From NCBI GenBank assembly GCA_023267215.1, contig JAHFNS010000001.1, positions 98,736 to 162,735 on the forward strand: a stretch of 64,000 nt of DNA, given 5' to 3'. The notes beneath the pieces are model-generated. The model was not told the origin of the DNA and ran no database searches. It saw nothing but the letters and a program-made list of their open reading frames with translations. The DNA comes from Candidatus Nomurabacteria bacterium. GTDB taxonomy: Bacteria; Patescibacteriota; Minisyncoccia; Phycocordibacterales; UBA9973. Position 1 is the stretch's first letter. Every line of letters begins with the position of its first letter. The translations under genes were made by a program, and so were the position numbers. Shown here piece by piece: positions 1 to 48,794 of the stretch.

Positions 1-518
1 AAATTTTTGAGCTTTTAGAAGAGGGGAAGAATCTAGCATTAGTTTCAGATGCTGGTACTCCGACTATCTCTGACCCTGGAGCAATGCTTATTTCTAAAAT
101 AAAAGAAAAGTTTTCCCAGAAGACGGTCTTCGGGGAAGAACCCCGAAGACCGTCTTCTGGGGTAGAAGTTATTCCAATTCCTGGAGCTTCTGCAGTTATT
201 GCTGCACTTTCTGCTTCTGGACTTCCAACGCATGAATTCACATTTCTAGGATTTCTTCCACACAAAAAAGGAAGAGAAACTTTATTTAAAGAAATTGCTG
301 AATCAAAACGCACAATGGTTTTCTATGAATCCCCACATCGCATTTTAAAAACATTAGAATCCTTAAATAAATTTTGTCCAAATAAAAAAGTTTGTATTGC
401 TCGCGAAATCACTAAGATTTATGAAGAGTTTAAAACAGGTACACCACAAGAACTTTTAGAATATTTAAAAAAAAATCCCGTAAAACAAAAAGGGGAGTTT
501 ACAGTATTAGTTTCTTAA
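1..518 (+). CDS. rsmI: 16S rRNA 2'-O-methyltransferase RsmI, C-terminal part (5' end lies outside window)
   Basis: Frame 3 is open from the window edge. Translation gives LEEGKNLALVSDAGTPTISDPG ... VIPIPGASAV ... FYESPHR, typical RsmI motifs. Track ORF 84..518 is the internal-Met tail. Carries an in-frame 48-bp palindrome at 115..162. Confidence 0.85.
   Translation, partial: IFELLEEGKNLALVSDAGTPTISDPGAMLISKIKEKFSQKTVFGEEPRRPSSGVEVIPIPGASAVIAALSASGLPTHEFTFLGFLPHKKGRETLFKEIAESKRTMVFYESPHRILKTLESLNKFCPNKKVCIAREITKIYEEFKTGTPQELLEYLKKNPVKQKGEFTVLVS
115..162. repeat. family A GC-rich palindromic element, copy 1 (in rsmI, in-frame)
   Basis: cccagaagacggtcttcgggg-aagaa-ccccgaagaccgtcttctggg. Perfect 21-bp inverted arms. 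Confidence 0.8.
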
Positions 519-519
519 T

Positions 520-2484
520 TTACAACAAATCTTCTGGATCTACAGAGACTTCGTAGGAAAAAGGTAAAGACGAAAGTAAATCAAAAAGACGTTGGTCTAT
601 GGTTGAACCTATAGACAGGAGAGATAAAGACCACTTTTTTGGTTCTAATTTAATAAGTGCATTGGTGACATATTGGTTTTTGTTTTTAGCCATAAATCCG
701 CCGAATATGTCTGGAGCGTATTCTTTGAAAAGCTCTGCCAGCAATCTCTTTGCTTCTATAGAGCCCTCTTTATCTCCTAAATAAGTAATTTTAATAAAGC
801 GTTTATATGGAGGATAATTTAAATTTTTTCTATCTTCTAATTCTTCACGCACAAAAGGAAGCAAGTTTTCTCCCTTGACGGCAAGCAAGGCGGAATCATT
901 TTTATTTTTTGTATGAATGATTAGTTTTCTTTCAGTTAACGAAAGCATAGAGAGCAGAAGCTGAATTATTTTCTCACTCATTTTGTAATTTGGAATTGTC
1001 CAAAGCCCGTCAAAGGAAGCGATGACAGACAAATCAACTTTATTTTTTAAATAATAAAAAGCCATTTCTGTGCCGACCAATATAGAGCCGGGAGTTTCCT
1101 CAAATTCTTTTATTATTTTATTTGCCCCACTAGCCGTTTTTGCTATCTCTTTATCCAATTTAAATATTTTAACTTTTGGAAATTTTTCTTTTAACTCTTC
1201 ATATACAGTGTCTGTGCCTATACCGAGCGGCATCAAATTCCAGCTTTCACAAATAGGGCATTTAGTTTCAGGGTCTTTTTCAGTATTGCATTTATTACAG
1301 ACAAACATTCTTTTTTTACCATCACGAGACAAATACAATACCAGAGGAGCCATACATTCGTCGCAATTTATAGTTTCATTGCAATCTTTACATATAGTAT
1401 AAGTGGCTAGGCCCTTCCTTAAAGAAAATACAAAAACATTTTTTTTAGATTTTATAGTGTTTTCTATATCCTCAATGCTCTTATCTGCAAATATTTTAAA
1501 TTGAGAATTTATTTTTTCGTTTTGCGAAGAGGGCTCATCTTCTTGATTTGGATTTATTATATTTATAGATACTCTATTAAAATTGGTTCTAAAAGACATA
1601 GGGTAAACTTCGCCTAGATTTTCTGTTTCTTTTCTTGCAATTGTTTCAAAACGGAGCAATGTGTCAGCCAATATAAATTTCACATTAATTTTTGCTGCAT
1701 AAAGTTCGGCAAAAGTTCTCATATCAAAATGTGGTTTTGGAATCATTTTATAAACATTGGAACTTTCATGTTCCACTATAATAGCCCCTAAGTCTTCTCT
1801 CGGAACAGATAAGAATTGAGTAGTTCCAAGTATTAGTACTCCGTGTGTAGAATTTATTATTCTCTCATAATTTTCAAGGATTTTTTTAGGTTTTAAACTT
1901 CCATGCATAGTGAAAGTAAAATTTTCTATACCTTTAGAAAGAGCTTGCTCAAATATTTCTATGTCATACTCTGTTGGTAATATTATGAAGACAGATTTTT
2001 TGAGAGCAAAATATCCGCGAATCAAAGTTTTGTAATAAGAAATACGATCTTCTAAAGAAGCTTGCAAAAGTAATTTTTCAGTTTTAATATTTGGATTTAC
2101 AAGACGGTCTTTAAGAAATTCTATATTAGAAAATTTTACTATTTGGTCATATTTTTCCCGAAAGATAGCAGGAACAAAAGAAATTACTCCGCTGTTTTTT
2201 TTGGAAATAAAATAAGAAGAAATAGAAAGCGCAGATTCCAGAAATTCATTTTTGAAAATGGAATACTTTTTTACTTCATTTATTTTCTTTAATTTGAAAG
2301 GCATACCCTTTATGCCAGATTTTGCATTACTCAAATCTTCACAAGATATTACTAAACCTAAGATTTTTTTATTACGGATGGGTACACTGACAATACTTCC
2401 ATTTTCTATATCTTTCGCAGTAAAATAAGTCAAGTCTGTTTTGAATACTCCTTTCTGAAGTGGGATTATTGTTACAATTTTCAT
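520..2484 (-). CDS. priA: primosomal protein N' (PriA)-like with possibly degenerate helicase motifs
   Basis: 654 aa. Has the PriA-type Cys-rich region CKDCNETINCDECMAPL...CNKCN...CPICES, GIGTDTVYEEL, and a C-terminal domain. I find no GxGKT P-loop, and the DEEH position reads VEHE. Confidence 0.75.
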   Translation of the reverse strand: MKIVTIIPLQKGVFKTDLTYFTAKDIENGSIVSVPIRNKKILGLVISCEDLSNAKSGIKGMPFKLKKINEVKKYSIFKNEFLESALSISSYFISKKNSGVISFVPAIFREKYDQIVKFSNIEFLKDRLVNPNIKTEKLLLQASLEDRISYYKTLIRGYFALKKSVFIILPTEYDIEIFEQALSKGIENFTFTMHGSLKPKKILENYERIINSTHGVLILGTTQFLSVPREDLGAIIVEHESSNVYKMIPKPHFDMRTFAELYAAKINVKFILADTLLRFETIARKETENLGEVYPMSFRTNFNRVSINIINPNQEDEPSSQNEKINSQFKIFADKSIEDIENTIKSKKNVFVFSLRKGLATYTICKDCNETINCDECMAPLVLYLSRDGKKRMFVCNKCNTEKDPETKCPICESWNLMPLGIGTDTVYEELKEKFPKVKIFKLDKEIAKTASGANKIIKEFEETPGSILVGTEMAFYYLKNKVDLSVIASFDGLWTIPNYKMSEKIIQLLLSMLSLTERKLIIHTKNKNDSALLAVKGENLLPFVREELEDRKNLNYPPYKRFIKITYLGDKEGSIEAKRLLAELFKEYAPDIFGGFMAKNKNQYVTNALIKLEPKKWSLSLLSIGSTIDQRLFDLLSSLPFSYEVSVDPEDLL

Positions 2485-3540: not shown

Positions 3541-4272
3541 ATGGGAATTTTAGAAAATATAGATAAAAATAATCTGCATCATGCTTATCTAATAGAAGGT
3601 GATAAAGAGGAAATTATACCAGAGCTTTTAAAATTTCTAAAAAATTTAGGAATAGAAACATCTCACAATCCAGATTTTTGTCAGATTACACTCGATTCTT
3701 TTAAAATTGAAGATGCTCGTAATTTAAAATCGATAGGAAACGAAAAAGGTTTTTCTGTAGGTAAAAAAGTATTTTTAATTTCAGCTAATAATTTTTTATT
3801 GGAGGCACAAAATACATTGTTAAAAATATTTGAAGAGCCGATAGAAAATACTCATTTTTTTATAATAGTGCCTAACGCAGATGTTCTTTTAAAAACTCTT
3901 GTTTCTAGATTTTATTTAATCAAAACGAAATCGGAAATGATAGATGAGTTGAAAGAAGCTGAGAAGTTTATAACTATGCCTCTTAAAAACAGGATTGATT
4001 TTATTAAGGAATTGATAACTGAAGAAGAGGAAGAAGACGAAGAAGAAACATTAGAAATAAAAAGCACTAAAGCAAAAGCTTTAAAATTTCTAAATGCGCT
4101 AGAATCTGTGCTTGTGTCAAGGATGCCCTTTGACAAAAAGATGTCAAGGGGCATCCTTGACACTAAAACTTGTTTTGCCCACATTTTCAAAGTTCGTGAA
4201 TTTATAAACCAACCAGGCTCGTCTTTAAAAACCTTAATGGAATCTGTAGCCTTAATGATTCCCAATTTTTAA
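3541..4272 (+). CDS. holB: DNA polymerase III delta' subunit-like (AAA+ clamp loader lacking a canonical P-loop)
   Basis: HHAYLIEGDKEE (delta'-type HAYLF motif), SRF arginine-finger region. 243 aa, short. 4 nt after mreB. Confidence 0.55.
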   Translation: MGILENIDKNNLHHAYLIEGDKEEIIPELLKFLKNLGIETSHNPDFCQITLDSFKIEDARNLKSIGNEKGFSVGKKVFLISANNFLLEAQNTLLKIFEEPIENTHFFIIVPNADVLLKTLVSRFYLIKTKSEMIDELKEAEKFITMPLKNRIDFIKELITEEEEEDEEETLEIKSTKAKALKFLNALESVLVSRMPFDKKMSRGILDTKTCFAHIFKVREFINQPGSSLKTLMESVALMIPNF

Positions 4273-5944: not shown

Positions 5945-6003
5945 CCTCACCTAGAGCCCCTCTCCTTAATAAGGAGAGGGTGGCCAAAGGTCGGGTGAAG
6001 TGT
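5945..6003. repeat. family B palindromic element, copy 1 (intergenic rseP / Cys-rich gene)
   Basis: gacctcacc-tagag-cccctctcctt-aat-aaggagaggg-tgg-ccaaaggt-cgggtgaagtg. Core has perfect 10-bp arms around aat. Confidence 0.7.
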
Positions 6004-6007
6004 ATTT

Positions 6008-7726
6008 ATGAAATCAGAAACTAAAACATGTCAGAATTGCAAACAAGACTTCACTATCGAGCCAGAAGATTTTAATTTTTATGAAAAAATAAAAGTTCCA
6101 CCACCGACATTTTGTCCAGAATGTAGAAGACAAAGACGTTTTGTTTGGCGAAATGAACGGGTGTTATATCGTCGTACTTGTGGTTTATGTAATAAAAATG
6201 TTATTGCAATATATCACGAATCTTCACCTTTTCCTGTGTATTGTCGAGAATGTTGGTATGGAGATAAATGGGATCCTACTTCTTATGGTAGAGAGTATGA
6301 TATGTCTAAATCATTTTTTGAACAATATAAAGAATTATCTAATGTTGTTCCAAGATTGGCTATGTGGCAAAGAAATTGTATAGATTCAGATTACTCAAAT
6401 ATGGCTGGAGAATCAAAAAATGTTTATTTATCTGTTTCGGTTGTAAAAAATTCAGAAAATATTTTTTATTCAAAATCCGTAGATAAATCAAAAGACATTG
6501 TAGATTGTTTAAATATTATAAATGGATCTGAAAGTTTATATGAAAATGTCGAAGCACAGAGTAATTATAATTCACAATATCTTTTATTATGTAGAAGTTG
6601 TATGGATTCTTATTATTTGGTTGATTGCGTAAATTGTAGTAACTGTTTTTTGTCTTATAATTTAAGGAATAAACAATTTTGTATAAACAACAAAGAATAT
6701 AAAAAGGAAGATTATTTTAGAGAGGTAGAAAAGTTCAATTTAAAAAGTAGAGCTTCTCGTCAAGTTTTATTAAAAAGATTTGATGAGATAAAAAAGAAAT
6801 CCATTTATCGTTTTGGAAATATTAATAGGTGTGTGAATGTTACAGGCAACAATCTTTTAAATGTTAAAAATGGTAAAAGTTGTTTTGAAATTTATAACAT
6901 AGAAAATGTAAAATATTGCTATAGAGCTTTTGATATTAAAGATTCTATGGATTTTGACTATGGCGGATGGTCAGAATTACTTTATGAATATACGACAGGT
7001 GCGTTACATGATTACAATGTTAAGTTTAGTTATTCCGCAATGGATTCTGTGAGAAATGCTGATTATACAGAATCTTGTAGAAATTGTTCTAATATTTTTG
7101 GTTGTATTTCTCTCGTAAACACAGAAAATACAATATTAAATAAGGTTTATCCCGAAGAGGAATACAAAAAACTTCGTGAAGAAATTATCAAACAAATGAA
7201 TGAAGTACCATATATTGATAAAGTAGGTAGGGTTTATAAATATGGCGAATTTTTCCCAATAGAGTTATCACCCTGGGATTATAATGAGACTTTGGCCCAA
7301 GAATTTTTTCCTATTACAGAAGATACTGCGAAAGAAAAAGGATATCCATGGCGTCATTCAAACATAAAAAAATTTGAAATTACAATTACTTCAGAAAAAA
7401 TTTCTGATAATATAGATGACGTCAATGAAAATATTTTAAAAGAAGTTTTAGGATGTGCCCATAAGGGGAATTGTAGTCATCAATGTAATGTTGCTTTTCG
7501 TATAACGGACTATGAATTTAAATTCTATAAAAAACATAACATACCGTTACCTATTTTGTGTTCAAATTGTAGACATTATGAGAGATTCAAAGTTATGCCA
7601 GCATTAGATTTGTGGCATAGAAAATGTATGAAAGAGGGTTGTGATAATGAATTTGAGACAGCTTATGCTCCCGACAGGCCGGAGATTGTTTATTGTGAGA
7701 GATGTTATCAACAGGAAGTGTATTAA
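6008..7726 (+). CDS. large Cys-rich (multi zinc-ribbon) protein of unknown function with duplicated N/C-terminal module
   Basis: 572 aa with many CxxC pairs. N-terminal CQNCKQDFTIEPEDFNFYEKIKVPPPTFCPECRRQRRF recurs C-terminally as CNVAFRITDYEFKFYKKHNIPLPILCSNCRHYERF. Sits between rseP and mraY. Confidence 0.7.
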   Translation: MKSETKTCQNCKQDFTIEPEDFNFYEKIKVPPPTFCPECRRQRRFVWRNERVLYRRTCGLCNKNVIAIYHESSPFPVYCRECWYGDKWDPTSYGREYDMSKSFFEQYKELSNVVPRLAMWQRNCIDSDYSNMAGESKNVYLSVSVVKNSENIFYSKSVDKSKDIVDCLNIINGSESLYENVEAQSNYNSQYLLLCRSCMDSYYLVDCVNCSNCFLSYNLRNKQFCINNKEYKKEDYFREVEKFNLKSRASRQVLLKRFDEIKKKSIYRFGNINRCVNVTGNNLLNVKNGKSCFEIYNIENVKYCYRAFDIKDSMDFDYGGWSELLYEYTTGALHDYNVKFSYSAMDSVRNADYTESCRNCSNIFGCISLVNTENTILNKVYPEEEYKKLREEIIKQMNEVPYIDKVGRVYKYGEFFPIELSPWDYNETLAQEFFPITEDTAKEKGYPWRHSNIKKFEITITSEKISDNIDDVNENILKEVLGCAHKGNCSHQCNVAFRITDYEFKFYKKHNIPLPILCSNCRHYERFKVMPALDLWHRKCMKEGCDNEFETAYAPDRPEIVYCERCYQQEVY

Positions 7727-7729
7727 ATT

Positions 7730-7770
7730 CCCCTAAGCTGGGCTTAGGGGACAGAAGCCCAGCTTAGGGG
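7730..7770. repeat. family C GC-rich nested palindrome (intergenic Cys-rich gene / mraY)
   Basis: cccctaagc-tgg-gcttagggg-acag-aagcccagcttagggg. The left 21-mer is itself palindromic, and its reverse complement recurs 3'. Confidence 0.65.
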
Positions 7771-7798
7771 AAGTCTAAAAATATGTTAATATAACTAT

Positions 7799-31881: not shown

Positions 31882-32550
31882 TTATAAATCACTTTTTCCA
31901 ATATTACATACTGAGCAAAGTGTCTGTAAATTTTCTAAAACAGTTTCTCCACCTTTCGCCCATGCCTTTATGTGGTCAACATGCAGAATAATACTTGGGT
32001 CAGTTGCAGGTGACCTCCCACAATTTTTACATTTAAAATTGTCTTGTCTCATAACAACAAAGCGGAGTCTCCAATTTATTGTTCTTGATGTTTTATGTTT
32101 TGTGCTTGGCTCAATTCTAAATTTTTTTACTGCTTCTTCAGAAGAGACATCTTCTTCTTTGTTCATATATGTAACAAATTTCTCTAATGCTTTATGCCAA
32201 CCACCAAAACGTCTTGCGTAGGTATCAACACTGTATTTTGAAAATGGTTTCAGAATATCCCCATATTTAGGTTGTTTGCCAAGTTTTATCCAAATTTCTT
32301 CTAGATTCTTAAACAACTCTTCTTCTGGGAGATTCATTGGTGTTCTATTATCTTTAAGATTGGCTTTTTCTAACGCAGTATGCCAACTTCCAAAACGACG
32401 AATATAAGTTGTACTATGAAATTTCCCTTTTTTATCTTGTTCATCACGAGTAATTGAAGGTTTATTCAACATTAAAGCAAGTCCCCTTAAATCAGCGACC
32501 AGTTCTTCGTCTGTAACACCACGATGATAATCTTCGAGTTCAAATTTCAT
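31882..32550 (-). CDS. HNH endonuclease with two N-terminal HNH-associated repeats
   Basis: C-terminal CKNCGRS...HVDHIKAWAKGG...NLQTLCSVCN (HNH). Repeats RRFGSWHTALEKANL / RRFGGWHKALEKFV. Start taken at MKFELEDY to avoid overlap (track ORF runs to 32664). Confidence 0.8.
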   Translation of the reverse strand: MKFELEDYHRGVTDEELVADLRGLALMLNKPSITRDEQDKKGKFHSTTYIRRFGSWHTALEKANLKDNRTPMNLPEEELFKNLEEIWIKLGKQPKYGDILKPFSKYSVDTYARRFGGWHKALEKFVTYMNKEEDVSSEEAVKKFRIEPSTKHKTSRTINWRLRFVVMRQDNFKCKNCGRSPATDPSIILHVDHIKAWAKGGETVLENLQTLCSVCNIGKSDL

Positions 32551-32584
32551 AATTTTATTATACCAAAATAACGTCTTTCTAGTG

Positions 32585-33154
32585 TTATTGTTCAGCAATC
32601 TCTTCAATAGATTCTCTGGTAATTCTAATTTTTTTTCCAGTCGGAAGAGTGATAACCGATTCAATTTTTAGAATTAATTCTAAAGGTTCTAATTGGTTAT
32701 CTTCTACTCGAATTTCTCCTGTTTTCTCATCAAGCACAACATGAGCTTTTTCAGAATTTCCATCTCGTTTGCCAATTATTAAATGCATATCGCCAACTTC
32801 TTTGGAGCGCGATTCAATAAATAGTCCCTCGGCGTCCAATCGATTTTTAAAAGTTTTGGTTGAGCTCTTTATATGATTCAAGATTTCATCTATAAAAATT
32901 CTCCAAATCTCAAGCCTTGTGTGTGCAGTCATTACATTATGAAAACCTGGTTTAAGTTGTGTTCTCAATCCACTGTTTAACTTTTTAAACTTTAGTTGTA
33001 AAATTTCATCATCTAAATTTTTTACAATATCAGTAAGCTCAGACCTAATTTTAGATTCAACGCTTTCTAATCTTTCTCTCTCTAAAAGATCTTGACCGCC
33101 CAATAAATAGCATCTATCTATTTCTTGTAATAATAATTTTAAAATATGTTCCAT
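32585..33154 (-). CDS. hypothetical protein (189 aa)
   Basis: ORF between the HNH gene and tRNA-Gln. No motif recognised. Confidence 0.45.
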   Translation of the reverse strand: MEHILKLLLQEIDRCYLLGGQDLLERERLESVESKIRSELTDIVKNLDDEILQLKFKKLNSGLRTQLKPGFHNVMTAHTRLEIWRIFIDEILNHIKSSTKTFKNRLDAEGLFIESRSKEVGDMHLIIGKRDGNSEKAHVVLDEKTGEIRVEDNQLEPLELILKIESVITLPTGKKIRITRESIEEIAEQ

Positions 33155-33553: not shown

Positions 33554-33627
33554 TGGCTGGGAGGCTTGGAATCGAACCAAAATTGATCGCTTCAAAGGCG
33601 ACTGTCCTACCGTTAGACGACCTCCCA
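33554..33627 (-). tRNA. tRNA-Gln (anticodon UUG), CCA encoded
   Basis: Reverse complement reads TGGGAGG TC GTCT AACGGTA GGAC A GTCGC CTTTGAA GCGAT CAATT TTGGT TCGATTC CAAGC CCTCCCA G CCA. It has U1-A72, G73, GG in the D-loop, a TTCGATT T-loop, and anticodon loop CU-UUG-AA. Confidence 0.8.
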
Positions 33628-36454: not shown

Positions 36455-37462
36455 TCAAATTTTTTTTAAAAAATCACGAATTATTTTTTCTACTTCTTTA
36501 GAATTTTCTGTCTCCATTAATTTTGCACGTAATTCTTTCGCACCAGGAAAATCATTTACATACGCTTTGAAATGTTTTTTCATGACAGCAAAACTTTTAT
36601 GTTTTGGTATCGCAAGCTCTTTATCAAAAAGTTGAGTGTGTTCCATGAGAACTTCTAGTTTTTCTTCTACCCTCTCCTTTTCAAGGAGAGGGGTTGGGGG
36701 TGAGGTGAATACCCAAGGATTTCCAAAAACTCCCCTACCTATCATTATTCCATCACAACCATACTTTTCTGCTTTCTCTTCCGCATCTTTTAAATCTTTA
36801 ACATCACCATTGCCAATGAGCAAAATATCTTTGCCACTTTTTTTAATAAGCTCTTTTATTTTTTTAATGTAATCCCAATTTGCAGGAACGAGAGATAATT
36901 CTTTTGTTGTTCGTAAATGAATCGTCAAAGCAGAAATATCTTCCTTTAATAATTCTGGTATCCAATTATCAATATCTTCCCTATTGAAACCAACTCTCGT
37001 TTTGACAGACACTGGGATATGAAGCCCTGCAGATTTTATTCCAGCATGAGCAGCCTGTATTATTTTTCTAGCAAGTTGTGGTGTCTTTATCAAACCCGAG
37101 CCAGCACCTTGAGCAACGACAGATTTGTCTGGACAACCCATATTTATATCTATTCCATCAAAACCGAGACTAGCAATATAACTACAAGCTTTTTCCATAT
37201 TCTCCGGGTTAGCACCGAAAACTTGAGCGATGATAGGTCTCTCAGCTTCAGAATATTTTAAAATGTGAGAAAGTTTCTTTTTGGCGAGTTTATTACACAA
37301 GCCATCAGCCGCCACAAACTCTGTCCAGAAAACGACGCTGTTTCTATTTTCTCTGTTCTTACTATATTTCGCCAAGATACGACGAAAAGCAATGTCAGTG
37401 ACATCCGACATCGGTGCAAGGCAGAAAAATGGTTTTTTAAGTTTTCTCCAGAAATTTTGCAT
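36455..37462 (-). CDS. tRNA-dihydrouridine synthase (DusB-like)
   Basis: FCLAPMSDVTDIAFRRI, MIGRGVFGNPWVF, TIM-barrel FMN motifs. Carries an in-frame palindromic element (TSPPTPLLEKERV) right after GNPWVF. Confidence 0.85.
   Translation of the reverse strand: MQNFWRKLKKPFFCLAPMSDVTDIAFRRILAKYSKNRENRNSVVFWTEFVAADGLCNKLAKKKLSHILKYSEAERPIIAQVFGANPENMEKACSYIASLGFDGIDINMGCPDKSVVAQGAGSGLIKTPQLARKIIQAAHAGIKSAGLHIPVSVKTRVGFNREDIDNWIPELLKEDISALTIHLRTTKELSLVPANWDYIKKIKELIKKSGKDILLIGNGDVKDLKDAEEKAEKYGCDGIMIGRGVFGNPWVFTSPPTPLLEKERVEEKLEVLMEHTQLFDKELAIPKHKSFAVMKKHFKAYVNDFPGAKELRAKLMETENSKEVEKIIRDFLKKI
36655..36725. repeat. family B palindromic element, copy 3 (inside dus, in-frame)
   Basis: ttcacctcaccccc-aa-cccctctcctt-ttc-aaggagaggg-tagaggaaaaa. 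Read in-frame as FTSPPTPLLEKERVEE on the minus strand. Confidence 0.7.
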
Positions 37463-40938: not shown

Positions 40939-40992
40939 ACAAAGTGCCGAAAGGCTTCGAGAAACCCCGCTTCTGCGGGGTTTCGATTTTCT
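40939..40992 (+). ncRNA. candidate ~55-nt small RNA (GNRA-tetraloop hairpin + terminator hairpin)
   Basis: gccGAAAggc hairpin then aaaccccgc-ttct-gcggggttt followed by tcgattttc. Lies between the promoter above and the convergent mazF-like stop codon. Putative only. Confidence 0.3.
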
Positions 40993-41380
40993 ACAAAAAT
41001 AGTTTAAGTTTTTGTTTTATTTCATTAAAAAGATGGTCAGGCATTACATAGATATCTCTTTTTAATCTTTTCACACTAATCAATCTCATCTGAGCAAGTA
41101 TAGCTGACACTTTTTGATTATTTGGATCAATATAATTAAAATAAAAATCAAATTTCTTTTGTTTAGTTGAAAGTGGGACACACCAAAACATATGATTATT
41201 AAATTTCTTTACAATTAATACTGGACGAGAAAAACTATCTTCACTACCATTCTGCTCATATCCAATATTTCTACCTAAAGAACACATCCAGACTTCTCCT
41301 TCTTTAGGAAAATTATCAGGCATATTTTCTCTGGTATTTATTTTCTTTTTTAATTCGTTCCAATTATCAAATTCTTCCAT
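40991..41380 (-). CDS. MazF/PemK-family toxin (mRNA interferase)-like protein
   Basis: GEVWMCSLGRNIGYEQNGSEDSFSRPVLIVKKFNNHMFWCVPLSTKQK aligns with MazF GDLIWVDFDPTKGSEQAGHRPAVVL...CVPCTTQSK. No adjacent antitoxin ORF. Confidence 0.6.
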   Translation of the reverse strand: MEEFDNWNELKKKINTRENMPDNFPKEGEVWMCSLGRNIGYEQNGSEDSFSRPVLIVKKFNNHMFWCVPLSTKQKKFDFYFNYIDPNNQKVSAILAQMRLISVKRLKRDIYVMPDHLFNEIKQKLKLFL

Positions 41381-41507: not shown

Positions 41508-43781
41508 ATGAAATTACTCATTGTTGAATCACCATCAAAAGCAAAGACTATAGAAAAATATTTAGAAGGCGCATACACAGTGCGTGCTTCTATTGGACAT
41601 ATTCGTGATTTACCTAAATCAAACAAACAAGCGATAGATATCGAAGGTGGTTTCATTCCACATTATGAAATTTCAAAAGGTAAAGAAAAAGTTGTTCATG
41701 AACTTCAATCACTCGGAGAAAAAGCCACAGAGATATTGTTAGCGACAGACCCCGACCGTGAAGGAGAAGCTATAGCTTGGCATATAGAAGAACTTTTAAA
41801 GAAAGATAAAAAAATAAAAGCTAAAGCGAAACGTGTGACATTCCATGAAATAACAAAGGAAGCCGTAGAAGAAGCATTGAAACATCCTCGAAACATAGAC
41901 ACTGCTTTGAGAAAAGCTCAAGAAGCAAGACGTGTCCTCGACAGACTCGTAGGATATGATCTGTCTGGTTTGATATGGAAAAAAGTACGCTATGGACTCT
42001 CTGCAGGACGTGTTCAATCCCCTGCACTCCGCATAATAATGGAACGCGAAAGAGAAATCCGTGCTTTTGTGCCAGAGAAATATTGGAGAATATTAGGACT
42101 TTTTGAAACACCCAAAAAAGGAAAACTTACTTTAAATTGTTCTATTGAGCCAAGAGATGAAAAAGTTGTAGAAAAAATAATGGAAGAAGGCAATAGTAAA
42201 GATTGGTTTGTAACTGATGTCAAAGAGGGAGAGCAAAAGAGAGTTCCTCGTGCTCCGTTCACTACTTCCACATTACAACAGACAGCGAGCTCTCGCCTTG
42301 GATATTCCCCTTCTAGGACAATGCAAATAGCTCAAAAACTTTATGAAGCTGGACATATCACATACATGCGTACAGATAGTACAAATTTATCTCTTGTCGC
42401 TCAATCACAGATAGTTTCTATGATTGAAAAAAAATATGGGAAAAATTTTGCACAAGCAAGAATTTATAAAACAAAATCAAAAAATGCCCAAGAAGCACAC
42501 GAAGCTATTCGCCCAACTCATATAGAAAATATGTTGGCTGGCACAGATGAACAACAAAGACTTTATAGATTAATCTGGGAGCGTGCTGTTTCTTCACAAA
42601 TGGCAGATGCGAAATTATTGAAGACAAAAATAAGTGCGAATATAGCTTACAGCCCCAAAGACGGTCTTCGGGGAGCTCCCCGAAGACCGTCTTTGGGGCA
42701 ATTCGAATTCCCAGACTTCACAGCTGTCGGTTCCAGAATTCTTTTCTCTGGTTGGCTAGAAGTTGATAGAGATAGTGTCGGAGAAGATTTTGAATTACCA
42801 GAAGTAAAGAAGGGAGACAAATTAAAATTGTTAAATCTCGTTAATGAAGAAAAATTTACCGAACCACCAAATAGATATAGTGAAGCAGGCCTCATTAAAG
42901 AACTCGAGGCACGAGACATAGGTAGACCTTCTACTTATGCTTCCATAATGAAAACATTGGAAGACAGAGAATATGTCAGGAAAGAAGGCAAAACTCTATT
43001 CCCTACAGACGTCGGTGAAGTCGTGTCAGACTTCTTAGAAAATAATTTTGCAAATTATATCTCTGATACATTCACAGCTGAGATGGAAGACGAGCTAGAT
43101 GAAATATCTCGTGGTGAACGTGAATACGAAAAAACATTAAAAGATTTCTATGGACCATTCTTAAAAGAAATAAAAATAAAAGAAAAGTTAGAAAAAGCGA
43201 CAAATTTAGGAGAAGCACCAGAAGGTATAGTGTGTCCAAAATGTGGCAGTAAAATGATAGTGAAGCTTTCTCGTGCAGGAAAATTCTATTCTTGTATTAA
43301 ATATCCAGATTGTGACGGAGCCCTTATGATAGACGGTACAGAATTGAAAGGTCCAAAAGAAACTGGTGAGATGTGTCCCCAATGTGGACATAAGAGTGGA
43401 GGAAAAAAAGGAAATGGGGGTGGAGGAAAATTGATCATACGCGAGAGACGTGATGGCACTGGCACATTCATTTCTTGTTCTCGTTATCCAAAATGTAAGT
43501 TCATAAAAAAAGACGAAGCAGAAGAAGCAAAAAAAAGAACTGGGGTTATCTGTCCAACTTGCAAAAAAGGAGATATTTCTGAGCGCAAAGGAAGATTTGG
43601 AGTATTTTATTCCTGTTCAAACTATCCTGATTGTAAATTTGCAATTAAAGCAAAACCCACTGGTAAAACATGTGATAAATGTGGATCTTTAATGATGCAA
43701 GGTACAAAAACTATCCCTGATAGATGCAGTAATAATACATGTTTAAATTATCGACCTGATAAATTAAATAAAATTAAATAA
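41508..43781 (+). CDS. topA: DNA topoisomerase I with C-terminal zinc-ribbon repeats
   Basis: MKLLIVESPSKAKTIEKYLEG...GHIRDLP (TOPRIM), active-site region HITYMRTDS, four CxxC...CxxC zinc ribbons at the C-terminus. Carries an in-frame 46-bp palindrome at 42653..42698. Confidence 0.9.
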   Translation: MKLLIVESPSKAKTIEKYLEGAYTVRASIGHIRDLPKSNKQAIDIEGGFIPHYEISKGKEKVVHELQSLGEKATEILLATDPDREGEAIAWHIEELLKKDKKIKAKAKRVTFHEITKEAVEEALKHPRNIDTALRKAQEARRVLDRLVGYDLSGLIWKKVRYGLSAGRVQSPALRIIMEREREIRAFVPEKYWRILGLFETPKKGKLTLNCSIEPRDEKVVEKIMEEGNSKDWFVTDVKEGEQKRVPRAPFTTSTLQQTASSRLGYSPSRTMQIAQKLYEAGHITYMRTDSTNLSLVAQSQIVSMIEKKYGKNFAQARIYKTKSKNAQEAHEAIRPTHIENMLAGTDEQQRLYRLIWERAVSSQMADAKLLKTKISANIAYSPKDGLRGAPRRPSLGQFEFPDFTAVGSRILFSGWLEVDRDSVGEDFELPEVKKGDKLKLLNLVNEEKFTEPPNRYSEAGLIKELEARDIGRPSTYASIMKTLEDREYVRKEGKTLFPTDVGEVVSDFLENNFANYISDTFTAEMEDELDEISRGEREYEKTLKDFYGPFLKEIKIKEKLEKATNLGEAPEGIVCPKCGSKMIVKLSRAGKFYSCIKYPDCDGALMIDGTELKGPKETGEMCPQCGHKSGGKKGNGGGGKLIIRERRDGTGTFISCSRYPKCKFIKKDEAEEAKKRTGVICPTCKKGDISERKGRFGVFYSCSNYPDCKFAIKAKPTGKTCDKCGSLMMQGTKTIPDRCSNNTCLNYRPDKLNKIK
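42653..42698. repeat. family A GC-rich palindromic element, copy 2 (in topA, in-frame)
   Basis: ccccaaagacggtcttcgggg-agct-ccccgaagaccgtctttgggg. Perfect 21-bp arms, near-identical to copy 1. Confidence 0.8.
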
Positions 43782-46527: not shown

Positions 46528-47856
46528 ATGCCAAAAATGAAAGTACAATCAAATAGTTCTATTGATTTTGAAGTAAACGGCGGAAAAAAGTTAAGCGGAA
46601 CAATAAAGACTAATTTTTCTAAAAACGGCTCTGTTGGGCTTCTTTGTGCTTCCCTTTTAAATAAAGGAAAAACGACCTTGCACGGTATTGCTCGCATTGA
46701 AGAAGTTTATAGAGTGATAGAAATATTGGAAAGCATAGGAGTGAAAATCAATTGGATAAATCAAAACTCTATTCAAATAATTCCTCCCGTAAAATTTAAA
46801 CTAGAAAATATAAATGTTGAATCAGCGGTAAAGACTCGCTCCGTCGTGATGCTTATGGGCCCGATGATTCATTTCTTAAAATCTTTTTCTCTCCCTCATG
46901 CACAAGGCTGTAGCCTAGGCAAACGCACTATTGCTGCTCATACTTATGCCTTAGAAGACCTTGGAATAAAAATAAAAACGACAAATACGAGTTACGAAGT
47001 AAGCACTAAAAAAATAAAACCAGCTGATATTGTGATGTATGAATCTGGAGATACAGCCACTGAAAATATTTTACTTGCTTCCGCTTTAATTTCAGGTATT
47101 ACCAAAATATCTTTTGCTAGTCCTAACTACATGGTACAAGAAATTTGTTTCTTTCTTGAAACTTTAGGTGTACAAATAGATGGAGTTGGCACTTCTACGC
47201 TAACTGTGCATGGAATAAAAGAAATAAACAAAAATATTGAATATTGGAATAGTGAAGACCCTATTGAATCTATGATGTTTATTGCTGCTAGTATTATTAC
47301 TGACTCACATCTCACTATCACCCGAGTGCCTATAGATTTCTTGTCTCTTGAAATGGAAAAACTAAAAAGAATGCATTTAAAATACAAAATTTCAAAAATT
47401 TATTATTCTTATAACGGCAGAACAAAATTGGTAGATATTGAAATCTTTCCTAGTAAATTAAAAGCCTTAGAGGATAAAATCCACGCAAATCATCCAGGGA
47501 TAAATATAGACAATCTTCCCTTCTTTGTACCTATCGCTATAAAAGCACAAGGTCAAACGATGATTCATGATTGGTTTTATGAAGTACGTATGATATATAT
47601 GAATGAATTAAATCGTCTTGGGGCAAATGTTACTCTTGCCGACCAACACCGTCTCTATATTCAAGGTGGAACACCTCTCAAACCTGCACAAATCGTCTGT
47701 CCTCCAGCTCTTCGTCCCTCTATGGTTATACTTATTTCCATGCTTGGAGCTCCCGGCACATCCATTCTTCGCAATGTATATATGATAAATCGTGGCTATG
47801 AAGAAATAGCAAAACGTCTAAACTCCATTGGCGCCGACATTAAGATTTTAAAATGA
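46528..47856 (+). CDS. murA: UDP-N-acetylglucosamine 1-carboxyvinyltransferase MurA
   Basis: EPT/EPSP-synthase fold. N-terminal KLSGTIKTNFSKNGSVGLLCASLL, 442 aa. Stop overlaps miaA start. Confidence 0.8.
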   Translation: MPKMKVQSNSSIDFEVNGGKKLSGTIKTNFSKNGSVGLLCASLLNKGKTTLHGIARIEEVYRVIEILESIGVKINWINQNSIQIIPPVKFKLENINVESAVKTRSVVMLMGPMIHFLKSFSLPHAQGCSLGKRTIAAHTYALEDLGIKIKTTNTSYEVSTKKIKPADIVMYESGDTATENILLASALISGITKISFASPNYMVQEICFFLETLGVQIDGVGTSTLTVHGIKEINKNIEYWNSEDPIESMMFIAASIITDSHLTITRVPIDFLSLEMEKLKRMHLKYKISKIYYSYNGRTKLVDIEIFPSKLKALEDKIHANHPGINIDNLPFFVPIAIKAQGQTMIHDWFYEVRMIYMNELNRLGANVTLADQHRLYIQGGTPLKPAQIVCPPALRPSMVILISMLGAPGTSILRNVYMINRGYEEIAKRLNSIGADIKILK

Positions 47857-48794
47857 ATACACCTCACCCTAACCCTCTCCTTAATAAGGAGAGAGGAAAA
47901 ATCTTACCAAAGGTTATTGTGATATTAGGCTCAACAGCTACTGGAAAGAGTGACCTAGCTGTTAAAATTGCCAAAAAAATCAATGGAGAAGTTATTTCAG
48001 CTGATTCTAGACAAGTCTACAAAAGTCTTGATATAGGCACAGGTAAAATAAGTAAAAAAGAAATGAAGGGTATCCCTCATCATTTGCTCGATGTCGTAAA
48101 TCCAAAGAAAAAATTTACAGTCGCAGAATATCAAAAGAAAGCAATCCACGCCATGGCTCTGATTGTAAAAAAAGGCAAAACTCCCATAATTTGCGGAGGC
48201 ACGGGATTTTATATTGATGCTATTACCAAAAGCACCGTTTTTCCTGAAGTTCCACCGAATTTAAAATTAAGAAAAACTTTAGAAAAAAAATCAGCTCTAG
48301 AGCTTTTTAAAATGTTAATGAAATTAGATAAAAGACGTGCGAAAGATATAAAAGATAAAAATGAAATAAATAATAAAGTCAGATTAATAAGAGCAATAGA
48401 GATAGTTAAAGCTATCGGTAAAGTTCCAAAATTACAAAGTGACACAAACTCTGCCATGGCAAAAAATGTGTCACTATATGAGTTTATAAAAATTGGATTA
48501 TATTTATCGCCAGATGAATTAAAAAAGAAAATAGAAAAAAGAGTTAAAAAAATGTTTAAAGATGGATTGTTGAATGAAATAAAAAAATTAAAGAAAGCAG
48601 GAATATCCGAAAAAAGATTAAAAGAGTTTGGTTTTGAATACGATTCCCCTACTTATGAAAAAGTGGTGAAAGAAACCATAAAATACACCAAACGCCAAAT
48701 GACTTGGTTTAAGAGAGATAAAGAAATTAAATGGATTGATGCCTCAACACAAACAAATTTAGAAAAAATAATTAATGATTTACAAAAGGATTAA
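47853..48794 (+). CDS. miaA: tRNA dimethylallyltransferase MiaA
   Basis: P-loop GSTATGKSDLAVKIAK, DSRQVYKSLDIGTGK, HHLLDV. N-terminal 22 residues are encoded by a palindromic element. An in-frame GTG at ~47919 is an alternative start. Confidence 0.85.
   Translation: MNTPHPNPLLNKERGKILPKVIVILGSTATGKSDLAVKIAKKINGEVISADSRQVYKSLDIGTGKISKKEMKGIPHHLLDVVNPKKKFTVAEYQKKAIHAMALIVKKGKTPIICGGTGFYIDAITKSTVFPEVPPNLKLRKTLEKKSALELFKMLMKLDKRRAKDIKDKNEINNKVRLIRAIEIVKAIGKVPKLQSDTNSAMAKNVSLYEFIKIGLYLSPDELKKKIEKRVKKMFKDGLLNEIKKLKKAGISEKRLKEFGFEYDSPTYEKVVKETIKYTKRQMTWFKRDKEIKWIDASTQTNLEKIINDLQKD
47858..47915. repeat. family B palindromic element, copy 2 (5' end of miaA)
   Basis: acacctcaccctaa-ccctctcctt-aat-aaggagagagg-aaaaatctta-ccaaaggtt. 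Shares cctcacc, the core palindrome and ccaaaggt with copy 1. Confidence 0.7.

Follow-up and report, generated by a model that had tools for sequence, protein, structure and literature searches.

A palindromic insert in topA of a Candidatus Nomurabacteria bacterium is one of a family of short, GC-rich coding palindromes dispersed in Patescibacteria

A DNA topoisomerase I gene (topA) of a Candidatus Nomurabacteria bacterium (assembly GCA_023267215.1, contig JAHFNS010000001.1) carries a nested palindrome inside its reading frame. We analyzed this element within a stretch of 64,000 nucleotides (nt), hereafter the window, whose features are collected in Table 1. The closest relatives of the encoded TopA are annotated as Candidatus Nomurabacteria, Paceibacterota or Patescibacteria. 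Read directly, positions 42653-42698 are ccccaaagacggtcttcgggg-agct-ccccgaagaccgtctttgggg, which confirms the arm sequence, the agct centre and the perfect 21-bp arms given in an earlier note on this DNA. The palindrome extends further: a repeat finder returns two abutting 24-nt arms (42652-42675 and 42676-42699) with 100% complementarity and, because the AGCT centre is self-complementary and one more pair closes on each side, the perfect palindrome measures 48 nt (42652-42699). Its first base is codon position 2 of an AGC codon and its last is position 1 of a CAA codon. The insert occupies residues 383-397 of the 757-residue protein, where it is read as PKDGLRGAPRRPSLG. We report that this element is a copy of a dispersed family of short GC-rich coding palindromes, here called family A, in Patescibacteria (Nomurabacteria/Paceibacteria and relatives).

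The element stands out by composition and by structure. Its GC content is 67%, against 27-36% across the window and about 31% for the genome, and it folds at -49.3 kcal/mol as RNA (z = -9.5) and at -30.6 kcal/mol as DNA (z = -9.9), with none of 200 shuffled sequences folding as well in either case. The possibility of an intrinsic terminator was considered and set aside, as the element lies inside topA, 1.1 kb from either end, and is followed by no T-run. The palindrome is free of stop codons in every frame, which lengthens an open reading frame (ORF) on the antisense strand. The earlier note had observed that this antisense ORF encodes the same peptide; it does end in it, and is most likely a spurious by-product of the palindrome.

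A search of the window for the family-A arm with up to three mismatches returned the topA site and a second site at 115-161 in rsmI, and nothing else, with 0.00 matches expected from 100 shuffles; the two copies, already assigned to one repeat family in the earlier note, do belong together. Within this one genome, their 21-nt arms differ at 2 of 21 positions. Direct counting also bears out the frames described before: the first arm starts at codon position 2 in rsmI and 3 in topA, and the second arm at position 1 in both. What does not stand is the reading of the one-nucleotide difference between the two loops as a frame-restoring compensation under selection. Such an event is superfluous because only in-frame variants of an essential gene can be observed, a matter of survivorship. 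Spacers vary, from about 1 to 19 nt between family-A copies, and sizes come in whole codons: the 21-nt arm equals seven codons, the topA palindrome measures 48 nt, the best-preserved rsmI-type doublets measure 51 nt, and insertions or deletions between orthologous copies are whole codons.

Palindromic chimeras are known from amplified DNA, but an assembly or amplification artefact is effectively excluded here: the identical TopA protein is on record on two contigs, the longest of 335,961 bp, and orthologous copies with compensated differences occur in independent ENA and JGI assemblies (for the rsmI site, also in Logan).

The claim that the segment is an in-frame insertion in topA holds up against orthologues. 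Far from being conserved in unrelated TopA proteins, it corresponds in E. coli TopA (4rul_A) to a 17-residue gap placed exactly at the insert, between TTLTVG and AGDFRLKARGRILRFDGW, at a beta-hairpin turn in what we take to be domain D2. Among the 120 closest homologues (77-100% identity), 66 are empty at this position, with 4-9 residues where the window protein has 21, and the other 54 carry inserts. Insert-free orthologues are found as close as 77-92% identity, and the pattern of presence and absence requires at least 27 changes on a neighbour-joining tree. In an AlphaFold (AF2) model built from a 32-sequence alignment, which is poor overall (mean confidence score, pLDDT, of 55) and was used for local secondary structure only, strands 368-379 and 404-413 flank the insert, and a low-confidence segment (382-397, pLDDT below 50) coincides with it; the 15 residues thus lie between two beta-strands in a low-confidence loop. 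On these comparisons the topA element is an insertion at the tip of a predicted surface beta-hairpin of TopA, where it would form a disordered loop of 15-16 residues.

The insert appears to be read through by translation. All palindromes found inside genes are in frame and stop-free, and none splits a gene. A -49 kcal/mol hairpin is the kind of structure used in bypassing, and the stretch read as DGLRGAPRRPSLG could in principle be removed from the mRNA or skipped by the ribosome, as with the GC-rich byp elements of yeast mitochondria or T4 gene 60. We consider this very improbable, and rejected a programmed bypass element as a candidate: the element is in frame and stop-free in all frames, the in-gene copies are stop-free in the frame that is used, no palindrome parts two gene halves, orthologous copies differ by whole codons, and cutting out the 46-nt element as first delimited would break the frame.

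Family A is dispersed among genes and genomes. A double-core scan of a collection holding one genome per species, to which the source genome does not belong, returned 62 loci, about a quarter of them in metagenome-assembled genomes (MAGs) of Patescibacteria. In-frame copies in Patescibacteria lie in gltX (glutamyl-tRNA synthetase), murE (Mur ligase; same site in two MAGs), recJ, a uvrA-like ATPase gene, an S-adenosylmethionine (SAM) methyltransferase gene, atpG (ATP synthase gamma), gatB (same site in two MAGs) and a PriA-like gene. The doublets share an 11-nt core and occur in at least nine other genes of other Patescibacteria. All frames and both orientations are in use, one DNA sequence yielding KTVFGE, EDGLRG/KDGLLS, PRRPSSG/KRPSFG or EDRLRG. 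Three MAGs have in common a 51-nt doublet that is nearly identical, its AAGAA spacer included, and that lies in a different host gene in each. Two family-A copies lie in the 64-kb window, and one MAG holds at least four doublets with the exact core. A single-unit search of viral contigs gave no matches, and full-text literature searches returned no report of palindromic in-frame elements in Patescibacteria or Parcubacteria.

Many of the scan's matches outside Patescibacteria, in Prevotella, Clostridia and others, have nothing but the 11-nt core in common with family A; they are intergenic stem-loops and were treated as unrelated. Among them, genomes of Prevotella/Prevotellaceae and Marseilla each hold several intergenic stem-loops of the form AAAGACGGTCTTT-N11-AAAGACCGTCTTT with the same 11-nt core as family A (loci from other genomes are given L numbers: L013, L015, L018, L020-L023, L027, L033, L036, L040, L043, L044, L047, L049, L052, L055-L057, L059-L061 and L064); these are probably an unrelated Bacteroidales repeat or terminator family.

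The rsmI site shows how such elements occupy a position. E. coli RsmI (5hw4_A) shows a gap of 16 residues at the position of the insert and, among 120 RsmI homologues, 23 are empty, 30 have 3 to 9 additional residues and 67 have 10 to 18. Read directly, the DNA of an empty site is TTT AGT GAT GAG GTG and single-unit alleles read T[CC CCG AAG ACC GTC TTC GGG G]AG, while the double form of the window exceeds the singles by a 21-nt unit over L146 (seven codons) and by 18 nt over L148 (six codons). Across four related genomes, the elements at this site are equal in length and register and have differing cores (AAGACGGTCTT, AAGTTGGACTT and AAGTCAGACTT). The AAGAA spacer of the window copy was initially taken as host DNA left between two separately inserted units; this reading is weakened because the same spacer occurs in the atpG, gatB and methyltransferase-gene doublets, and we keep both possibilities. 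An isolated AAGACGGTCTT core without its CCCC/GGGG ends lies at 2100-2112 (priA-like ORF 520..2484, minus strand) and may be chance or a remnant; the PriA-like gene of L026 holds a full family-A doublet.

An entire class of palindromes, not one family, shares the TopA site as a hot spot. From 80 metagenomic topA loci we extracted the DNA between two conserved anchors. Where no insert is present, 15-20 residues separate the anchors and the DNA folds at 0 to -13 kcal/mol; where there is one, the interval has 26-35 residues and 18 of 20 loci fold at -23 to -53 kcal/mol. About ten different palindromes were found at this one site, such as GCGGAAGCCTTGCTTTCGCG, CCCCACATGTCGGACATGTGG, AACTTGGAGGTTCTTCCTCCA, AATTCGGGTGTTGGACACC and CCAAGGGTTCCCCTTGG. 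L087 holds a single unit there, and L105 and L108 each hold a doublet belonging to the family of that unit. In the orthologues L001 and L002 the spacer reads AACT, and an unrelated palindrome at the same site (L067) has TACT.

Other positions behave alike. A second topA hot spot (FET.KK^KITLEC) was noted in L081, L088, L089 and L141-L143, and MiaA and ParB also appear as hot spots. The parB-like ORFs of two close genomes hold different nested palindromes (L079, 8712-8754; L086, 9491-9530), which does not imply a shared position.

The architecture of the elements is nested: two 21-nt units stand inverted around a short spacer, and each unit is itself a near-hairpin, so that a DNA or RNA strand could form one hairpin of 22-24 bp or, less well, a pair of small hairpins. 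The arm of nearly every palindrome inside a gene consists of a stem, a centre of 1-5 nt and the stem again. In a census of GC-rich palindromes with arms of at least 14 nt over 1.16 Mb of related DNA, 53 were found, 33 of them inside ORFs of at least 150 residues; arms were significantly self-complementary (p ≤ 0.02) in 13 of these 33, as against 1 of the 20 others, which are mostly terminator-like and intergenic. The pairing between units is what is kept, because the long hairpin of the topA element is perfect while the small hairpin of its unit 1 alone pairs at 9 of 10 positions, with one A.C mismatch.

These series raise the possibility of a local origin without mobility, in which a hairpin is copied inverted beside itself by template switching, its arms are homogenized, and hot spots are simply tolerant sites. 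The rsmI progression from an empty site through a single 21-nt hairpin to a double one in steps of six to seven codons fits this well, as do the single unit and same-family doublets at the topA site, the perfect arms and compensated changes, the different palindromes of one length and register at a single site, and the (A/T)ACT spacer common to two different topA-site palindromes; the mechanism itself is documented (PMC8794818, PMC13100816). As the sole origin, we nevertheless consider it unlikely. It fails to explain how rsmI and topA arms of one genome come to differ at just 2 of 21 positions, how a near-identical 51-nt doublet, spacer included, arose in three unrelated genes of three MAGs, or why two further palindrome families of the window (B and C, described below) recur in different genes. 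Local template switching is plausible as a maintenance step.

Comparison of copies reveals what is conserved in them: the base pairing of the arms is, the encoded peptide is not. Relative to the window, the topA copy of L001 (92% protein identity) has changed a C-G pair to T-A and an A-T pair to G-C, both compensated; the L002 copy (86% identity) retains an outer stem of 16 bp, in which one change is compensated, and its inner GGGG has decayed. For the long hairpin at the rsmI site (four sequences), 94% of cells are paired and 8 of 21 pairs have changed on both sides, a degree of covariation reached in 0 of 500 shuffles and in none of the slid controls; the small hairpins are less well kept: pairing stands at 85%, and both sides have changed in 6 of 20 pairs. 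One change between L086 and L097, from CACATGTC to CACAAGTC, is mirrored in all four quarter-sites. Across family-A copies, the pairs beside the core covary as well (G-C, A-T and T-A at one, C-G and T-A at the other). The peptides at the orthologous rsmI site are unrelated (QKTVFGEEPRRPSSG, PKLDLGEIPLSPTSG and QKSDLGEISISLTSG). Partly degraded copies are also present, in L002, in L147 and in the miaA insert of the window. The many families, the hot-spot site and a constraint on base pairing rather than on the peptide go beyond the earlier note.

This pattern leaves little room for an adaptive peptide or an ancestral TopA segment, in which the 15 residues would be a functional loop of this lineage's TopA. 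The insert is kept in three related genomes (the window, L001 and L002), as such a loop would be, yet its peptide changes freely as pairing is kept, three reading frames of this DNA are used in other proteins, the segment is absent from E. coli and most relatives, and it models as disordered; we find this reading hardly credible.

Covariation of this strength could also reflect a host-selected structure: an mRNA hairpin or DNA cruciform, recruited repeatedly, that might act for instance in RNase III cleavage or decay, in pausing or, within topA, as a structure sensitive to supercoiling. The unconstrained peptide, the ten or so different hairpins at one site with inserts in 54 of 120 orthologues, and the persistence of perfect palindromes at 86-92% protein identity all speak for it. 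We regard it as improbable all the same, given that about half of close orthologues do without an insert, that several copies are visibly decaying, and that the same elements occur in either orientation between genes as well as across a dozen unrelated housekeeping genes. An Rfam scan returned only tRNAs above threshold, with sub-threshold microRNA-precursor noise for the hairpin, and templated correction can yield covariation without selection.

Other palindromes of the window belong to the same landscape. Family B, GTGTCAAGGATGCCCTTTGACA-aaaaga-TGTCAAGGGGCATCCTTGACAC, is read as VSRMPFDKKMSRGILD in the polymerase III delta' gene and is unrelated to family A; it also occurs in an ORF of L101, and other genomes have matching peptides (VSRMPLD, MSKMPFD) at their rsmI hot spot. 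Family C, which is a single hairpin with the flank motif ACCTCACC/GGTGAGGT, recurs in L093 and L109, where it occupies the topA hot spot, and in L088, L107, L108 and L125, where it lies in other genes. The insert in miaA, decaying but with its outer 9 bp and its centre GCCATGGC intact, is common to L001, L070 and L081, and most orthologues are without it; elsewhere, the rsmI hot spot encodes peptides related to it (TNSAI AENV). A GC-rich palindrome with 20-nt arms at 7726-7774 lies directly 3' of the stop codon of ORF 6008..7726 and encloses an inner hairpin that is offset (CCCCTAAGC..GCTTAGGGG); it may represent a terminator, or else an intergenic element of this class. Outside the window, three related long hairpins with arms of 27-33 nt (CCCCGG.GCACAAAT..AAAA..) lie outside long ORFs of different genomes (L104, 10662-10728; L114, 5791-5850; L138, 6037-6098) and may be an unannotated structured RNA or another repeat family.

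Neighbouring loci of the window were also noted. A PemK/MazF-like toxin gene (40991..41380, minus strand) lies directly upstream of topA; L001 and L002 lack it at the syntenic position. A gene for a free-standing HNH homing endonuclease with HNH_repeat domains (31882..32664, minus strand) adjoins several ORFs without a family match and a tRNA (33557-33627), and the region may be a small mobile island. Between 56.8 and 61.9 kb lies a duplicated set comprising two DUF1905, two DUF167/YggU-like and two Fic-domain ORFs, followed by a YgjP-like metallopeptidase and, at the end of the window, the C-terminal part of a type I restriction R subunit.

Table 1. Palindromic elements of the window and the genes that hold them (aa, amino acids)
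Feature	Position	Strand	Description
Host gene rsmI, 3' part	3..518	+	ORF continues past window start
Family-A doublet in rsmI	115..161	+	Arms 115-135 and 141-161 (21 nt), spacer AAGAA, read QKTVFGEEPRRPSSG
Family B nested palindrome	4114..4163	+	In frame, pol III delta' gene (ORF 3541..4272)
Family C, intergenic copy	5959..5979	.	Flanking inverted ACCTCACC / GGGTGAAGT
Family C, single hairpin CCTCTCC-N7-GGAGAGG	36671..36691	-	In frame, dus-like ORF 36455..37462
Host gene topA	41508..43781	+	757 aa; Toprim, Topoisom_bac, Zn ribbons
Antisense ORF, 90 aa	42647..42919	-	Terminates in same peptide as topA insert
Family-A doublet in topA	42652..42699	+	Perfect 48-nt palindrome, 16 codon-equivalents
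Unit 1 (arm 1) CCCCAAAGACGGTCTTCGGGG	42653..42673	+	Read (S)PKDGLRG
Centre/spacer AGCT of topA doublet	42674..42677	+	Between 21-nt arms
Unit 2 (arm 2) CCCCGAAGACCGTCTTTGGGG	42678..42698	+	Read PRRPSLG; exact reverse complement of unit 1
Decaying palindromic insert in miaA	48432..48476	+	ORF 47853..48794; 13-15 residues, LQSDTNSAMAKNVSL

Weighing these observations, we favor, at a probability of roughly 0.6, a selfish, non-autonomous hairpin repeat comparable to Rickettsia palindromic elements (RPEs) and REPINs; permissive loops would tolerate it, and templated correction or selection on its structure would keep it palindromic. Copies would insert at new sites, in whichever orientation and phase. 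Within a genome that is small and dense in genes, those that persist would be the ones in frame and in permissive loops, which would give rise to the hot spots. The palindrome would be kept perfect by template switching within it (quasipalindrome correction), by ectopic conversion from other copies, or by both, and would decay once correction fails.

Several points weigh against this selfish-repeat reading. No target-site duplication or flanking direct repeat, which the earlier note had suggested looking for, was seen at the topA or rsmI copy, where boundaries are uncertain by a few bases, and no common target motif is visible among the insertion sites. Comparison of filled, half-filled and empty sites gives a net inserted length of 39-51 nt depending on the choice of ancestral empty allele, and does not fix whether it is 42, 45, 48 or 51 nt. 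No HUH, RAYT or insertion-sequence domain that could mobilize the element was found by Pfam in 20 non-housekeeping ORFs of the window, among which the HNH endonuclease is the only nuclease of note. The strong covariation is compatible with an RNA or DNA structure selected by the host. Finally, differing palindromes of equal length and register at one orthologous site fit concerted evolution in situ at least as well as repeated insertion, and for this reason the case for mobility comes from the copies in different genes.

A bolder version holds that hairpin elements of 21-nt units target, replace one another and co-evolve at the same codon-level sites of essential genes throughout the phylum, with changes mirrored in four quarter-sites. 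We regard it as a tentative and rather doubtful possibility; if true, it would call for a new hairpin-directed machinery of mobilization or conversion, or for a selected role at the RNA or DNA level inside core genes.

Should the selfish-repeat reading be correct, a sizeable share of the unexplained length variation of core proteins in bacteria of the candidate phyla radiation (TopA, RsmI, ParB, MiaA, polymerase III delta', MurE and GatB, for example) would reflect tiny hairpin repeats rather than protein evolution, with consequences for alignments, the trimming of phylogenomic markers and structure prediction in these lineages. The dozens of orthologous sites that are empty, singly or doubly occupied or decaying also constitute a natural experiment, which can show how palindromes are born, maintained (by templated correction or by selection) and lost in genomes without much of the usual repair machinery. 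It would also extend the phenomenon of RPEs, selfish DNA within protein-coding genes, to a second and very distant group with reduced genomes, by way of an element of about one third the size.

Short palindromic repeats are familiar from other settings. The small dispersed repeats of heterocystous cyanobacteria, which Elhai and colleagues are said to have described in 2008, are reportedly mobile-looking hairpin units of 21-27 nt whose families share structure but not sequence, with compensatory changes and nested or adjacent insertions as in the elements of Patescibacteria. They are said to lie mostly in non-coding or repeat contexts of large genomes, however, and in-frame colonization of essential genes is reportedly not their hallmark. 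The optional GC clusters of yeast mitochondria (for example the 46-bp clusters in var1) and MJRE2 of Methanocaldococcus jannaschii are likewise short GC-rich palindromes in AT-rich genomes, some of them in coding sequence without a break of frame and polymorphic between strains; their hosts are an organelle and an archaeon, and their sequence families are different. We know of no nested-unit hot spots described for them.

Template switching at quasipalindromes perfects, extends and homogenizes the arms of inverted repeats and produces apparent compensatory changes (PMC7202029, PMC8794818, PMC13100816), which fits the perfect arms and four-fold coordinated changes seen here. It is a local mutational mechanism rather than a family of elements, and does not account for movement between genes.

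In design the topA element looks like a miniature form of REPINs, or REP doublets, in which two short imperfect palindromic units stand inverted around a spacer and form one long hairpin; REPINs lie outside genes, reach tens to hundreds of copies per genome and are linked to a RAYT transposase present in single copy (PMC3337134, PMC3116915). The inverted-unit doublet, the occurrence of singlets and the compensated variation within a family are common to REPINs or BIMEs and to the elements described here. In contrast, most copies here lie inside genes (33 of 53 strong GC-rich palindromes, including both family-A copies of the window and the majority of the remaining family-A doublets known from Patescibacteria), the families are many and of low copy number, and no RAYT gene was found in the 20 window ORFs scanned. 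Compared with MITEs (miniature transposable elements with inverted repeats), the whole element is an inverted repeat and no flanking direct repeat is evident, with boundaries uncertain by a few bases.

RPEs offer a close biological parallel. They measure 105-146 bp and are restricted to Rickettsia (Ogata et al., 2000, as summarized in PMC2229807). Both are dispersed palindromic repeats with a long stem-loop that occur between genes and in frame within conserved housekeeping genes of small AT-rich genomes, RPEs are translated as an extra and apparently neutral segment, as the topA-type element appears to be, and no transposase is known for either. The topA-type element differs in measuring 46-51 nt and being built from 21-nt units, in its hosts, the Patescibacteria, in being GC-rich against an AT-rich background, in its nested two-hairpin design, and in re-occupying the same codon-level hot spots with many families. 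We would therefore describe it as RPE-like rather than as an RPE, set apart by size and host. Among all these systems, the most unusual aspects of the elements reported here are the re-occupation of hot spots and the four-fold coordinated changes.

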